Of a DNA stretch of 64,000 bases, positions 32,741-57,345 are shown piece after piece. The notes beneath the pieces were generated by a model. It worked only from the letters and a program-made list of their open reading frames with translations. It ran no database searches and was not told where the DNA came from. The stretch's first letter is position 1; every line of letters begins with the position of its first letter. The stretch comes from an uncultured Verrucomicrobiae bacterium (lineage in GTDB: Bacteria > Verrucomicrobiota > Verrucomicrobiia > Chthoniobacterales > Chthoniobacteraceae): positions 128,001-192,000 of the forward strand of contig CAWIKF010000001.1 of assembly GCA_963836755.1 (NCBI GenBank), written 5' to 3'. Position numbers and translations under genes: made by a program.

Positions 32741-32837
32741 GGCCACGGATGGACACGGATGAAACACAGATGCGGATTGCTCACAGCCTTTCCTATTTTT
32801 TTCCATATCCGTGGTTCATCTGGGTGCATCCGTGGCC
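32741..32837. repeat. REP/MITE-like imperfect inverted repeat (~32-bp arms)
   Basis: Left arm GGCCACGGATGGACACGGATGAAACACAGAT; reverse complement of right arm GGCCACGGATGCACCCAGATGAACCACGGAT. Confidence 0.8.
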
Positions 32838-32895
32838 TAAGACCTCTCGAACGCAGCGAAAGAGTGGAAAGGCGAACCGCGCCGCTTTTCCGATG

Positions 32896-33145
32896 GAGCA
32901 ATTTGCTACGATGAATACCCTCCGGACTGCGATGCCGGAGTGTTTTGCTGCGTCATCGCAGCTATTTGCACCTTGACGGAGCTTTTTGCTCCGGTGGTGC
33001 AGTAAATTGCTGCGTGCTCGCAGCTTTTTGCATCCATGCCGATGCTCCGCGCTGCGATGTCGAACCTTTTTGCTGCGAGATGAGGCTTTTTGCTCCGAGG
33101 TCGGAGCTCCGAGGATGTTCCGCTATGCTTTTTGCTCTGATTTCC
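32896..33145. repeat. Degenerate tandem array of 12 units of 20-21 bp, consensus about SAGCTTTTTGCTSCGATGTCG
   Basis: TTGC cores at 32903, 32945, 32966, 32986, 33007, 33028, 33070, 33090, 33132 (spacings 42,21,20,21,21,42,20,42). Confidence 0.8.
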
Positions 33146-33168
33146 GACCGGTCTTCTCTGTAAACGGA

Positions 33169-33190
33169 CCTCGCGACGGCTCGCGCGAGG
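33169..33190 (-). terminator. GC hairpin directly after the stop of the 169-aa gene
   Basis: CCTCGCG-N8-CGCGAGG; only a weak U-tract follows. Confidence 0.4.
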
Positions 33191-33194
33191 CTGC

Positions 33195-33704
33195 TTAAGC
33201 CGTCGCTGGAAGAGCGGTCGCAGCAGCAGCCGCCGCCGCAGCAGCCGCCTTGCGTCGCCCGGGGAAAAACGCGCTCATTTTATCGAGCAAACCCTTGAGG
33301 CTGTCAGGCGCGCTAATCTTAAGAATGCTGTAAACGCGCAGGGCGAAATTCGCGAGATCGACGCCGATGGCCATCTCCGTGTCGCTGGCCGCCTCCGCCA
33401 GCTTCGCGACGCGGGCAAAGTAGGGGCGGCATTGATCGAGCGAAGCCAGGTCGGCCTGCGCTTCCGCCGTGCCGGAGCCGGCCGGGATGTTATTGGGATT
33501 CTGCACCGCCGCCGTCACCGAATCGCGCACCAACTGCTCGCGTGAGGTGCCCATCTTGAAAAGGTGGGAACGCTGATCGCCGGTCAAGGAAACAAGATGC
33601 GGCAGGAACTTTGTTTCCAAAGTAGTGAGTGCAGCATCGATGGCAGTCAAATCCGCTGCCGGGATGCTAAGGGAAACAAGGTTTTCGTTGGGGTTGGATG
33701 GCAT
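33195..33704 (-). CDS. Small alpha-helical hypothetical protein (169 aa) with basic/Ala-rich tail
   Basis: MPSNPNENLVSLSIPAADLTAIDAALTTLE...SLTGDQRSHLFKMG...; amphipathic helices; GC-rich codon usage. Confidence 0.85.
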   Translation of the reverse strand: MPSNPNENLVSLSIPAADLTAIDAALTTLETKFLPHLVSLTGDQRSHLFKMGTSREQLVRDSVTAAVQNPNNIPAGSGTAEAQADLASLDQCRPYFARVAKLAEAASDTEMAIGVDLANFALRVYSILKISAPDSLKGLLDKMSAFFPGRRKAAAAAAAAAATALPATA

Positions 33705-33831
33705 GCGCAAGCGGTAGCAAGCCGTCAAGTGCTAGGTCAAGGACTAAATGGGATTCTTTTTCAAGCGAGAGCCAACCTTCCCTTGTCGCACAGCGCAGCT
33801 TCTGCCATACAGCTTTCGAATCCGATAGTTT

Positions 33832-34162
33832 ATGAACGACTACTTGCGTGAGATCAAAGCCGCGTCCATCGACGCGACCAGGTTGAGCGTTGAGCTAAAG
33901 GACGGCTTCGCCTTCGAGCCGTGCCGCTGAACTTCTATCCCACGCTGCTGCTCGCAACCGATGAGTAGAACAGGCGATGGAAGTAAGTCCATACTCCCTG
34001 CATTGCGGAAGGGAGCTCACGACACTTGCGATCTGGGTAAACGAAGGTCTGCTGACAAGGCGCAAAAGAACATCTGAAGCTCGCGAGAAAGCATGGCAGC
34101 GTTCCGGCAGCACCGGTGAACAACCCACTAAGGCCGGCTGTTTCTCCGCCAATGAGCTATAA
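33832..34162 (+). pseudogene. DUF2442-like (antitoxin-type) gene, disrupted
   Basis: MNDYLREIKAASIDATRLSVELKDG, frameshift, VPLNFYPTLLLATDE, stop, then SLH..EGLL fragments. Confidence 0.65.
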
Positions 34163-34304
34163 CCGAGGTTTTTAGACCAGATGGAGACGGAAGGCAGTGG
34201 ACCTGCTGCAATCGACTGCATGGCATTTACTCACTGCGACGGATTGCGGGCATGTTGAAGGCGAGAAATGGCACGAAGCTGCGAGAAAGCATGGCAGCGT
34301 TCCG
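34083..34304 (+). repeat. 24-bp exact direct repeat within a degenerate ~200-bp duplication
   Basis: GCGAGAAAGCATGGCAGCGTTCCG at 34083-34106 and 34281-34304. Confidence 0.85.
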
Positions 34305-34492
34305 CTGCGCCAGGACGGGCGGCGTGAACATGGGGACAAGGACGGTGCTTATTTCATAGCGAAGAACGAATCGTTGTAACTATCTTCGACTGCTATCGAA
34401 AGCACGAACTCGAAAGAAATGTGCGTGCTCCTATTTTATCAATCTCTTCAAACCGCCATATTCCGTCTCCCTCCCATTGACCAAACTGACTT

Positions 34493-34617
34493 ATGAACCG
34501 ACTCTACTATGGCGATAACCTGGATGGTGTTGCGCGATCGGAAGAACTTTTCGGATGAGTGCGTGGATTTGATCTATCATCGATCCGCCGTTCAACTCGA
34601 AGCGCGATCAGCAAACA
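34493..34617 (+). pseudogene. N-terminal fragment of an N6/N4 site-specific DNA methyltransferase
   Basis: Joining across two +1 indels gives MNRLYYGDNLD-VLRDRKNFSDECVDLIY-IDPPFNSKRD (catalytic DPPF); homology then stops. Confidence 0.75.
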
Positions 34618-34628
34618 TGACAGCGAGT

Positions 34629-35194
34629 ATGAAATTAGGAGACCTCGCTAACTACGCTCAAGTATTCAGCTTGCCGCTGACGGTTTTTTTTGGTGGGTGA
34701 CGGCAGATCGCTTTTCAAGATTTTGGAAGCAAAGAGGCAAGCTGATCCTTCTAGTTCTTTTTCTCGTAGCCATAGTTGCAGCGAAGCGGATCGGGTGGTT
34801 AAACCAGCAAGCTCCAATCTGGCTTCTAGGGTTGCTGCTCGCATGTTGCGTTCTGATTATGTGGTTCTACCAAAAGGTCGGTAGTATTCCTGCTAGGCAA
34901 CCTTGTTCTTCTGGGAATGTGGAGGGCGTAGAATGGAATTGGCGAATCGTCTATGGCAGGTTTCTTGAAAACAGTCTTGTTCCTATTTGTCCGAATGCCT
35001 CGTGTCGCTGCCAATTAGATCACGAAAGAGTGGAATACGTTGGAAACGAGCAAAGCTACCGGCGTGTCGATCATGTGAAGCTAAAATGTCGTCGTTGCGG
35101 GTTTAGCCGCGTTTTCGAGTGCAACTGGATCGACCTGTTGCATGATATTCGCATTGAGGTCGAGAGACGTTTTCGAACGGAGGAATATCATTAA
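34629..35194 (+). CDS. Low-GC membrane protein with C-terminal Cys (Zn-binding) domain; probable frameshift at the T8 run ~34690
   Basis: MKLGDLANYAQVFSLPLTVFF joined to ORF 34697-35194, which has two TM segments, CPNASCRC and CRRC. Confidence 0.65.
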
Positions 35195-35216
35195 CCTACT
35201 GCAAGCAACCAGCTAA

Positions 35217-54424: not shown

Positions 54425-57345
54425 CCCGGCTGCTCCTCGATCGAGAGCAGGATCACCGGCTCGCCCTGCACGTCATGGTCGATGCGGCGCGCATTGAGCA
54501 GCATCCGCTTTTTTCCGATCTGCGGAAAAGTGTGGATGACCTCGAAATCCTGCACGCGCGTTTTTTTCGGCAGGATTTTTTCCAGCAGCGACCGGAGTTG
54601 CGGGATGTCCCACTGGCCGTTGCCGAGATCGTAGAGCAATTGCCCCTCGGTCTGCCGCGCGGTCACGACGAACGTTTTGTAAAATGCTGCGGTCGCCCAT
54701 TTCACGCGCAGCTCGCCATCGAGCACGAGAAATGACCCGCGCACCGTCTCCACGAACGCCTCCGCGTATGCGCGCGCCTGCTCCCTGTGCTTCGCCTCGC
54801 GCCGTGCCGCGTCGATGTCGAAAAGAATCAGCAGCACGCCGGTGATCTGGTTTTCCGAAGTCTCATACGGGCGCACCTGCAGCCGCCACCAATGGCCATC
54901 CTCGCCGCGCACCTCCGCCTCGCGCGTGTGCAGATGCGTGAGCACGTCGCGCAACATTTTCTCCAGATCCGGCAGATCGAAACCGAGTCGCAGGTTCGTG
55001 ATCGGGCGGCCCAAGTCGCCCGCGACAAGCTTGAACATTTTCTCCGCGACGGGCGTGAAACGGCGGATGCCCAGGTCGCGGTCGAGCATCACGATCGGGA
55101 TGTTCACGCTGCGCAAAAGATTGACGAGATCGTTGTTCACCTCGCCGAGATCGAGGTTCGTGTGCTTGAGTTCCTCGTTGACGGTTGTCAATTCCTCGTT
55201 CGTCGATTGCAATTCCTCCTTCGCCGTCTCGAGTTCCTCGTTCGTGCTTTGCAGTTCCTCGTTGCTCGACTGGATTTCCTCATTCGCCGAGCGCAATTCC
55301 TCGTTCGTCGCCTCGTGCTCCTCGATGACCGATTGCAAATGCTCGCGGCTCGCGGCCAGCTCATCCTCGAGCTGCTTCGCCCGCTCGTCACCGCCTTTCA
55401 ACCCGCCGCGCGCAGGCCGTGCGGATGGCGCCGGCTCCGGCGGACGCTCCTCGAAAAGCACCACGAAACAATGCTCACGCAACGCCGGCGAACCGAGCGG
55501 GATGACGTCGATATTCACGAACCGCGGCGGGCTCCCGCCGTGGCCGTTGATGCGGACATTTTCCTTGCGCACGGGCGAACCGATTTTTTTCGCGCGATTG
55601 ATCGCCGCCCGCAGCTCGATCTCAATCGCCGGCCGCGTCATGCGGAAAAGATTCAAGCTCGCCTCGCCCGACGATGGATCGAGAAAAGGCGCGACGCTGC
55701 CGCGGAACTGGATGATTTCCAGATTCTCGCCAACGACGATCGCTGGCGGACAATAGCGCGCCATCAACAGGCGGTCCGCCTCTTTTTGCACATCCAGCCG
55801 GCTCCAGATTTCCTTCTCGCCGCGCGGTTCGCCCGCCGAGCCGTGCGGCGCGGGCATTTCGAGATGTTCTTCCAAAACGGGATCGCCGGCACCGGCGCGC
55901 CGCACGAAGATTTTGTTTTTCGCATCCACGCTCTCGAAAATATCCGAGAACGCGCCGATCGATTCCGCGCTGCCGAGCAGCAGCCAGCCGCCGGGCTTGA
56001 GCGCGTAGTGAAAGATCGGGATCAACTTTTTCTGCGCCACCGGCTCGAAATAGATGAGCACATTGCGGCAGCTCACGAGATCGATCTTTGAAAACGGCGG
56101 GTCCTTGATCACATTCTGCCGCGCGAAGACGCACCGGTCGCGCACGGCCTTGCTGATCTGCCAGCCGGTTTCCGTGCGATTGAAAAAACGCCGCAGCCGC
56201 TCCGGCGAGACCTGCGCCTCGATACTCGCGGGAAAAATTCCTTTCCGCGCCTGCTCGACCACCCGCTCGCTCACGTCCGTCCCGAAAATCTGGATCGCAG
56301 GCGCGCCCGGCGTGTCACCCATGTATTCCAGCAGGCTGATCGCCAGCGAATACGCCTCCTCGCCCGTCGAGCAGCCGGGCACCCAGACGCGCACCGTGCG
56401 ATTCTGCCCGCGCTCCCGCATCAGCGCCGGATAGACCAGCCTTTCCATCGCCGCGAACGTTTCCGGCTCGCGGAAAAAACTGGTCACGTGGATGAGCGCG
56501 TCCTGGTAGGCCGCGTCCACCTCGTCGGGATGCGTCTGGAGATATTCGGCGTATTGCTCGTGATCGTCGATCCGGTGCACCACCATCCGGCGCTCGATGC
56601 GCCGGTGGATCGTCGTCTGTTTGTATTGGCTGAAATCGACACCCGTCGCGCTGCGCAACAGCGAGTAGATCTTTTTCAATCCATCCACCGGCGCCTCTCC
56701 GGCCTGCGGCTGCCGCCCTTTTACCACGAAGGGATGCTTGCCGAGCCGTGCGATCTCCTCCGCGATCTTCGCAGGCGGCAGCACGAAATCGACGCAGCCC
56801 GACCTCACGGCGCTGCGCGGCATGCCGGGATATTTCGCCGATTTTTCATCCTGCGCAAAGGTGATGCCGCCGTTGGCCTTGATCGCCATCAAGCCTTCCG
56901 TGCCGTCGCTCGCGTTGCCGGAAAGCACCACGCCGATCGACGTCCCGTCGCATTCGCCGGAGAGCGAGCGGAAAAATTCATCGATCGGCAGATGCGGGCC
57001 GTTGGTTTTCCCGCGCGGCCGCAGATGCAGCATCTCCCTGTCAATCCGCATCTCCACATTCGGCGGGATGATGTAAACGTGATCGCGCTCCACATGCATC
57101 CCATCGGTCGCCTCCGCCACCGGCATTTTCGTCGAGCGCTGGAGGATCGCGCTCAGGTGGCTCGGATGTTTCGGGTCGAGATGCTGCACCAGCGCAAAAG
57201 CGAGGCCGGTGCGCGCCGGGAGATGCTTGAAAAGTTCCGTGCAAGCCTCCAGCCCGCCCGCGGATGCGCCGATGCCGACCACTGGGCACGCCTCGGTGGG
57301 GCGGGGCTTCGATCCTTTCGCGCGGGAGGGACGCTTGCTAGCCAT
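54421..57345 (-). CDS. CheB methylesterase-CheR methyltransferase-coiled-coil-PAS fusion
   Basis: GASAGG, QHL, SDG; TSFFRE, GCSTGEEAYS, CRNVLIYF; EELQSTNEEL repeats; C-terminal PAS domains. Confidence 0.94.
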   Translation of the reverse strand: MASKRPSRAKGSKPRPTEACPVVGIGASAGGLEACTELFKHLPARTGLAFALVQHLDPKHPSHLSAILQRSTKMPVAEATDGMHVERDHVYIIPPNVEMRIDREMLHLRPRGKTNGPHLPIDEFFRSLSGECDGTSIGVVLSGNASDGTEGLMAIKANGGITFAQDEKSAKYPGMPRSAVRSGCVDFVLPPAKIAEEIARLGKHPFVVKGRQPQAGEAPVDGLKKIYSLLRSATGVDFSQYKQTTIHRRIERRMVVHRIDDHEQYAEYLQTHPDEVDAAYQDALIHVTSFFREPETFAAMERLVYPALMRERGQNRTVRVWVPGCSTGEEAYSLAISLLEYMGDTPGAPAIQIFGTDVSERVVEQARKGIFPASIEAQVSPERLRRFFNRTETGWQISKAVRDRCVFARQNVIKDPPFSKIDLVSCRNVLIYFEPVAQKKLIPIFHYALKPGGWLLLGSAESIGAFSDIFESVDAKNKIFVRRAGAGDPVLEEHLEMPAPHGSAGEPRGEKEIWSRLDVQKEADRLLMARYCPPAIVVGENLEIIQFRGSVAPFLDPSSGEASLNLFRMTRPAIEIELRAAINRAKKIGSPVRKENVRINGHGGSPPRFVNIDVIPLGSPALREHCFVVLFEERPPEPAPSARPARGGLKGGDERAKQLEDELAASREHLQSVIEEHEATNEELRSANEEIQSSNEELQSTNEELETAKEELQSTNEELTTVNEELKHTNLDLGEVNNDLVNLLRSVNIPIVMLDRDLGIRRFTPVAEKMFKLVAGDLGRPITNLRLGFDLPDLEKMLRDVLTHLHTREAEVRGEDGHWWRLQVRPYETSENQITGVLLILFDIDAARREAKHREQARAYAEAFVETVRGSFLVLDGELRVKWATAAFYKTFVVTARQTEGQLLYDLGNGQWDIPQLRSLLEKILPKKTRVQDFEVIHTFPQIGKKRMLLNARRIDHDVQGEPVILLSIEEQPG

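Follow-up and report, generated by a model that had tools for sequence, protein, structure and literature searches.

The small gene and the adjoining 21-bp array studied here likely form a real and undescribed mobile module, whose mechanism we infer below. As indicated by the comparison of homologous loci, the pairing of gene and array recurs across bacterial groups. No description of such a gene-plus-array module was found in the literature, of which subscription journals were poorly covered and supplements were outside the scope. In the window, i.e. the whole analysed stretch of 64,000 nucleotides, the locus consists of the following features.

32741..32837, no strand: REP-like dispersed palindrome with 36-nt arms and copies elsewhere, probably a separate neighbouring element.
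32848..32895, no strand: distal flank of the array, with a probable cassette edge near 32848, as seen in one contig.
32896..33145, no strand: degenerate non-coding array, 12 units long (ten units have 21 bp and two have 20 bp), with dyad symmetry at the consensus level; an independent contig covers 32896-33123.
33147..33174, plus strand: probable, tentatively assigned degenerate copy of an edge motif (TTACTCTG; here TTCTCTGTAAAC), running from the array to the 3' end of the gene, antisense into the gene.
33168..33191, minus strand: GC-rich hairpin right after the stop codon, with a weak U-tract; absent from the terminator scan output.
33195..33704, minus strand: gene encoding an all-helical protein of 169 aa, from a large family without a name; a predicted intertwined antiparallel homodimer (from the ORF and models).
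33705..33745, minus strand: candidate promoter region, with TTGACC and TTGACG hexamers near the ATG, as read by eye.

A sequence-only reading of this DNA had described the array as lying 3' of a gene for an all-helical protein, with a GC hairpin between the two. This layout is correct: the 169-aa gene is on the minus strand at 33195-33704, and the hairpin is located at 33168-33191. A consensus scan of the candidate promoter region of the gene (33705..33745) found no full sigma-70 site. The neighbours of the gene in the window are DUF362 and Mn-catalase genes.

All 12 units listed by that reading are present on the plus strand at 32896-33145, the 20-bp units being units 4 and 9, and the T-tract is indeed replaced by CTCCG in units 2, 8 and 11. 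The unit cores had also been called mini-palindromes. The dyad exists at the consensus level (z 2.3), but the complete GGAGC-TTTTT-GCTCC is found in unit 5 only. Unit 11 agrees with a hand-made consensus at 7/21 positions. At lags 21 and 42, the self-identity within the array is 0.40 and 0.43, respectively, versus ~0.25 at most other lags, and the lag-21 peak ranks second in the 64-kb window. The best-period statistic of 0.415 was reached by none of 2000 dinucleotide shuffles (0.318±0.011), and TRF picks up parts of the array, as 4.3 copies of period 21 and 2.4 copies of period 20.

The region 32848-33123 is also present, with 2 substitutions and 0 gaps, in a short-read contig from a different soil run. 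Because this independent contig spans the region without gaps, the 20-bp units are real and not assembly errors, and long-read errors were rejected as their origin. The claim that no convincing ORF covers the array stands with a reservation: two ORFs (70 and 72 aa, plus strand) do overlap it, both of chance size. The exclusion of a CRISPR was sound, given that the window units vary over their entire length and spacers are absent, i.e. there is no invariant repeat alternating with unique spacers; a search of the array against Rfam gave no match. The polarity along arrays is flat (proximal 0.66, distal 0.68; 27/46), so a CRISPR-like growth from one end is not indicated. A second 21-bp array in the window (55171-55345) lies within a long ORF, which we take to be of the CheB/CheR type, and encodes coiled-coil heptads; as an ordinary coding repeat, it served as a control.

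The linkage between gene and array was assessed at the best 80 of 169 confirmed relatives in named genomes, belonging to Verrucomicrobia, Xanthomonadales and Betaproteobacteria, several of which are congeners and thus non-independent. The array threshold of 0.165 was taken from the scan of the own genome, and the window locus scores 0.20. By autocorrelation, the check proposed with the sequence-only reading, a 21-bp period was detected within 600 nt downstream of the gene in 55 of 77 homologous loci, three of the 80 having been left out because their downstream DNA was too short. In the control region, 1.2-1.8 kb downstream, an array was present in 1/70 loci. The array is not unique to this genome, unlike the decayed minisatellite named as a refuting case, since 21-bp arrays also occur at most homologous loci. 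Upstream arrays were found in 10/79 loci, all ten without a downstream array and never on both sides; 65/77 loci have one array on one side of the gene. Averaged over the homologues, the downstream autocorrelation at lags 21 and 42 is 0.399 and 0.394, respectively, versus ~0.27. Additional relatives outside G004, a genome treated below, have a downstream array in 9/11 loci, one of which seemingly repeats locus L032.

Array profiles indicate that the unit sequences change with the divergence of the protein, while the 21-bp period stays fixed. All 18 pairs with a protein identity above 85% have profiles correlating at r>0.7, compared with 0/136 pairs below 40%. The unit profile of the window array is nearest to the arrays of the closest protein homologues (four of the top five matches). 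No neighbouring gene is conserved, the largest neighbour cluster comprising 4/80 loci; several recurring neighbours of the homologues look, by reading, like restriction-modification genes, and a resemblance to genes of defence islands is frequent among the neighbours. A terminator-like hairpin is present between gene and array in 18/46 loci, a count for which no control was run. At L012, L022, L024 and L047, the terminator-like hairpin after the gene is in register with the first unit, as if it were the origin of the array.

The protein had been suspected to belong to a widespread unannotated family. The searches bear this out, with 46 close relatives and 2,523 clusters at 50% identity (E<=0.001), and with no Pfam family match in 102 members. 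For the protein itself, Pfam, NCBIfam, PHROGs and PADLOC gave no match, and among the Pfam families listed for the 102 members at E<=0.1, none matches more than two members. DUF6261/HagB-like proteins, considered for a possible resemblance, were rejected as its identity: there was no match for the query, nor for the 102 members among the families listed (E<=0.1). Relatives occur in cultured Lysobacter, Luteimonas, Dokdonella and Zoogloea, and a scan of metagenomes retrieved one distant locus. None were found among viral contigs, plasmids and phages (the latter with one query), and a weak test for a longer fused relative was also negative. A repeated WD(G) motif is part of an N-terminal extension in some of the homologues (P0043 and P0045; upstream of L102, L103 and L111).

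The AlphaFold2 model, built from 102 sequences (pLDDT 93.1, pTM 0.73), is all helix, with no strand and with a 53-residue helix at 79-131. Searches for solved folds returned nothing from PDB sequences, Foldseek PDB or Foldseek viral, and the best structural comparison (VIA wide) had a Z of 4.6 and an rmsd of 4.1 over 79 aligned residues. No recognisable DNA-binding fold was found in structural searches with the protein model, and in the ESM Atlas there were hypothetical clusters only, no named ones.

The protein is predicted to form an antiparallel, intertwined homodimer. The two-copy prediction had a dimer score of 0.84, a mark reached by 20/30 solved homodimers and 1/23 single chains, and the best control had 0.00. 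Between runs, at least 96% of the contacts are the same, and the pLDDT is at least 87. The contacts 103-103, 96-110 and 82-120 give the antiparallel, intertwined arrangement, with the dyad at residue 103. About 49 paired residues at 1.5 Å each give ~73 Å, versus 71 Å for 21 bp, which is arithmetic on textbook rises and not a measurement. Across the 102 homologues, K/R is present in at least 60% at twelve alignment columns, and Y125, D108 and D116 are almost invariant, but on the whole the family has no basic character, with a median net charge of 0 and a pI of 6.3.

Many more arrays are spread over this genome. At period 21, 72 segments exceed 0.2, of which 65 lie outside long ORFs. Other periods yield 0-4 segments, except 20 and 32, which are probably echoes of the 21-bp arrays. 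Among 70 catalogued arrays, 26 have an array-type gene or gene fragment no more than 1.6 kb away, a figure that is partly circular because the seed genes were chosen for their neighbouring arrays, and 44 are solo. Nearly all gene-linked arrays (24/26) are on the 5' side, the two on the 3' side being those of the window gene's family. At least seven other protein groups adjoin the same kind of array, and some array neighbours carry a true FN3 domain. Homology of these groups to the window protein could not be demonstrated (hhalign probability <1%, equal to the reversed control). The helical part of the window protein and that of the helical+FN3 type have the same order of helix-N..P-long helix, with an hhalign probability of 0.4-0.7%, again equal to the reversed control. 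The two kinds of genes share the same period, changing units and many orphan arrays. Unlike the helical+FN3 genes, the window gene's family has no FN3 domain (there are no strands in the model) and its array is usually 3'. The FN3-less form of ~160 aa is the smallest version seen.

Among the genomes sampled, the arrays track the gene. The window gene's family is present in 10/41 related genomes and the FN3 family tested in 12/41, and both occur in 6/9 of the other genomes carrying the window gene's family. Array density was compared in five related genomes, 400 kb each, one of them (G006) 83% complete. The two genomes without the searched gene families had 0 and 0 non-coding 21-bp arrays per 400 kb, and the three carriers had 2, 9 and 15; this genome has 8.2. 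The carrier with 15 arrays, G004, has 39 copies of the window gene's family; three other array-linked queries found no match in it. An array adjoins 7/36 of its gene copies examined, always upstream and never downstream. At L129 and L131 of this carrier, long REP-like repeated blocks upstream of the gene replace the 21-bp array. At G000 C2:763489-766066, a gene that looks like an integron integrase is followed immediately downstream by an array and a helical+FN3-like gene.

These results can be brought together, tentatively and with a chance that we put just short of even, in the following model: the module is mobile, and its protein, a predicted symmetric dimer, binds to the equally symmetric array DNA at intervals of two helical turns. 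In this model, the protein likely binds the array as double-stranded DNA, with one dimer per 21 bp. The symmetric dimers would all sit on the same side of the helix, two turns apart, and such a spacing would fix the period while the unit sequence drifts with the protein. The dimer-coated array could then be a handle for the copying of cassettes and solo arrays, probably by array-to-array recombination, which is proposed because neither a transposase nor terminal repeats nor target duplications were observed. Next to a promoter, the array would also tune the linked gene. Several observations count against this model, namely the lack of a recognisable DNA-binding fold, a protein without a basic character overall, the 44/70 own-genome arrays without an array-type gene within 1.6 kb, and the seven or more other protein groups that adjoin arrays of this kind. 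The adjacent arrays at only 7/36 copies in G004 count against a tight coupling of gene and array. Strict phasing is eroded by a drift of ±1 bp in ~8% of the steps.

A broader version of the dimer-binding module is possible, but on the whole unlikely. It would be a transposase-free selfish element, in which the helical dimer coats a two-turn-phased palindromic array, drives the copying of arrays with or without the gene, and gives rise to solo arrays, from tens up to about two hundred in a genome. The same 21-bp code, with a freely exchangeable sequence, would serve several protein families that have little or no relationship to each other.

Alternatively, a host factor could read the array as a phased regulatory platform, such as an enhancer or operator that precedes a promoter, with helical genes as the usual output and the 3' position as an inverted or antisense arrangement. 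We consider this unlikely, even if a motif at the array edges speaks for it. CAGAGTAA is found in the flanks of 19/70 own-genome arrays, where 0.23 are expected. In this genome, 21/31 TTACTCTG sites are within 170 bp of an array, over unrelated unit families and with the array upstream in 16, and in two same-genus genomes 19/30 TTTACTCTG sites abut an array. In four loci, the array is followed by the motif and then, after 30-106 nt, by the start codon (ATG) of a helical+FN3-type gene, which is a position suited to a -10 element. Because of this distance to the ATG, the edge motif is probably a promoter element in this genus. The 5' position of 24/26 linked arrays fits the platform too. On the other side, the array is 3' in 55/77 loci of the window gene's family, and the motif loses its connection with arrays in other genera: none of the 30 TTTACTCTG loci fetched from five of them abuts an array, and no enrichment was found at their arrays (9 vs 6.7 expected). 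An edge motif common to distant homologue loci was not found either. Furthermore, a single host factor is an unlikely reader of dozens of unrelated unit sequences, and the sampled genomes without the genes are also without arrays.

The putative edge motif copy of the window (33147..33174) is identical at 21/28 positions to the end of the array at C1:543866-544222, and one other site ties at 21/28. Three of the five genome sites of CTCTGTAAAC are within 40 bp of an array, the window site included. The array at C1:29636 has inverted edge motifs on both sides.

Comparison of copies with their surroundings shows that gene cassettes and solo arrays get duplicated into unrelated flanks. Recent duplicates in G004 are 680-980 bp long, 87-93% identical and flanked by unrelated DNA. 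One of them consists of array, gene and terminator, and six cassettes stop inside the tail of the gene, so that the stop codon comes from the flanking DNA. The near-identical cassettes at L112, L117, L119, L121, L123 and L124 of G004 open with a 39-nt near-perfect palindrome ~200 nt upstream of the gene and stop within its final codons, and each copy thereby takes a different tail from the flanking DNA. One solo array was duplicated whole, and unit families recur at several sites in this genome.

At the window locus, two same-genus genomes have the DUF362 neighbour without array or gene beside it, and in G001 the DUF362 gene is directly next to the gene whose start is 3.5 kb further along the window. 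A contig from run X2 matches from 32848 onwards and is preceded there by 166 unrelated letters. A 20-mer from this unrelated flank is absent from this genome, and a 19-mer from a second loose end has one site only, with 2 mismatches. Copies of the palindrome at 32741-32837 are found at C1:273580 and C1:615762, each beside a 21-bp array, and at C4:48700; two copies of this REP-like palindrome stand at the start of a cassette of 662 bp (C1:273583, C1:615768), which includes a 21-bp array and is 89% identical between the two sites.

A dispersal of this kind could also be that of a non-autonomous mobile minisatellite, MITE- or REP-like, which is moved by a host transposase while the gene hitchhikes and binds nothing. 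As in the BrickBuilt minisatellite MITE of Porphyromonas gingivalis, which has 19 copies of a 23-nt unit and flanking promoter activity (PMC4596501), the arrays are dispersed, intergenic and head-to-tail, and like a MITE they occur as copies without a transposase. Most own-genome arrays are solo, unit families recur, an edge motif is common, and this genome has two Y1_Tnp matches. We nevertheless regard this explanation as doubtful. A MITE is one sequence, and these arrays keep the period only. In the available text, BrickBuilt is made of a single unit sequence, carries terminal inverted repeats of the IS5 kind and lacks a cognate gene (PMC4596501). The window-type arrays, by contrast, differ by locus with a constant period of 21, have no terminal inverted repeats that were seen, and are tied to a gene family. 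By eye, neither terminal inverted repeats nor target duplications were present at the junctions of 11 own-genome pairs and of the G004 cassettes, whose copies are 85-95% identical, so that old duplications may be eroded. No transposase was seen for the cassettes, and an HUH transposase as the mobiliser is not supported in two array-bearing same-genus genomes, which have no Y1_Tnp match (91% complete). Hitchhiking would also leave unexplained why 65/77 loci of the gene family have an array, across phyla.

The sequence-only reading had offered two mechanisms, a DNA platform for the protein and a structured RNA co-transcribed with it. Judging from the anatomy of the arrays, the DNA platform fits better. 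Arrays have a median length of 12 units. In arrays of at least 8 units, with 15-27 allowed, 1141/1257 steps between units are 21, 106 deviate by ±1, and one is 24. The off-period steps have a bias, with 20 over 22 in this genome (52 vs 6) and 22 over 20 at the homologue loci L001-L080 (44 vs 4). The dyad exceeds z 2 in 43/49 homologue arrays, but only in 27/62 own-genome arrays. Units two apart are more alike than adjacent units, i.e. there is a 42-bp higher order. Single units fit better reversed in 99/1236 cases, versus 68±4 in shuffles, and in 0/9 cases in the window array. As a whole, the window array has a closer fit to four arrays of the Luteolibacter group when it is reversed, by a modest margin (r 0.64-0.80 vs 0.49-0.68), and the orientation of the array relative to the gene thus apparently flips compared with the closest homologues. 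Because of the dyad, the indels of ±1 and not ±3, the lack of covariation and the apparent flipping, the arrays look like DNA sites and not like RNA or coding sequence.

That the array is transcribed to a repetitive protein-binding RNA, similar to a type III antitoxin or a scaffold RNA, appears improbable. The window region does fold at z -4.2 relative to dinucleotide shuffles, as expected of any palindromic repeat, and arrays fold mildly better than their column-shuffled versions (median z -1.4, n=22). The native unit order folds better than permuted ones in 10/104 arrays (z<-2) and worse in none (z>2), with a mean of -0.25, and the edge motif points into the array at 5/21 own-genome and 6/19 same-genus sites. 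However, there is no covariation within units, whose own arms pair no better than arms of different units (differences -0.009 to +0.004). In the window array, the native unit order is irrelevant to folding (z +0.95) and the ensemble is diffuse. A fold-back of whole arrays is not supported either (z>2 in 4/104), and Rfam is without a match. The RNA reading is further weakened by the terminator-like hairpins before the array (18/46 loci, as above without a control) and by the apparent flip in orientation.

The type III toxin-antitoxin systems ToxIN, CptIN and TenpIN do have a gene of similar small size, a tandem repeat array and a hairpin in between; in the available text, their arrays are upstream, with 1.9-5.6 repeats of 31-62 nt that form RNA pseudoknots (PMC3401426). 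The present arrays differ from these in having ~12 repeats of 21 nt, in being mostly downstream (here and in 55/77 loci), in the missing covariation, and in a protein family whose 102 members have no Pfam match to those toxins among the families listed. Very improbable is a heptad-repeat peptide, frameshifted or decayed, since, for all that 21 nt equal seven codons and some G004 arrays have open heptad frames, the 106 steps of ±1 versus one of ±3 rule out the in-frame heptad ORF considered by the sequence-only reading, the codon-lag autocorrelation (lag 3) is 0.276 downstream versus 0.299 in coding controls, and the window frames are broken, with the breaks confirmed by the independent contig.

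By analogy, the DNA-binding module would work most like a plasmid centromere with its binder, and spread like BrickBuilt. Examples of such centromeres are parC of pSK41 with ParR, which has four 20-bp repeats, and the heptad sets of pSM19035 with omega, whose sites mix direct and inverted units (PMC3130281). There, as in the present arrays, tandem degenerate repeats lie up- or downstream of the gene for a small dimer (here a predicted one), and their sequence varies between elements. The centromere binders covered by the available text are ribbon-helix-helix proteins that act with a motor NTPase, on plasmids (PMC3130281), whereas the window protein is all-helical in the model. A check for the RHH or HTH fold of centromere binders gave no Pfam family match in 102 members, next to the all-helical model and the best structural Z of 4.6. 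A partner NTPase gene was not found, no neighbour cluster exceeding 4/80 loci. Also unlike plasmid centromeres, the window gene's family has no conserved neighbour and no plasmid or phage match, and it reaches up to 39 copies per genome.

A period that is conserved across phyla, without conservation of the sequence, implies that length and symmetry are measured by whatever reads or makes the repeat. In carrier genomes, the arrays number from tens to about two hundred; they are intergenic, often by promoters, and may shape gene expression and genome rearrangement unnoticed. If it is true that the protein reads changing sequences on a fixed grid, it would be a candidate natural scaffold for modular DNA recognition.

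The stretch at 33705-35216, beyond the start of the gene, has a low GC content (0.51) and contains broken gene relics, one of which presumably resembles the start of a DNA methyltransferase. An unknown membrane-type ORF of 165 aa is found at 34697-35194, and 115 bp of the stretch recur beside another array-linked gene, at C2:1249086.
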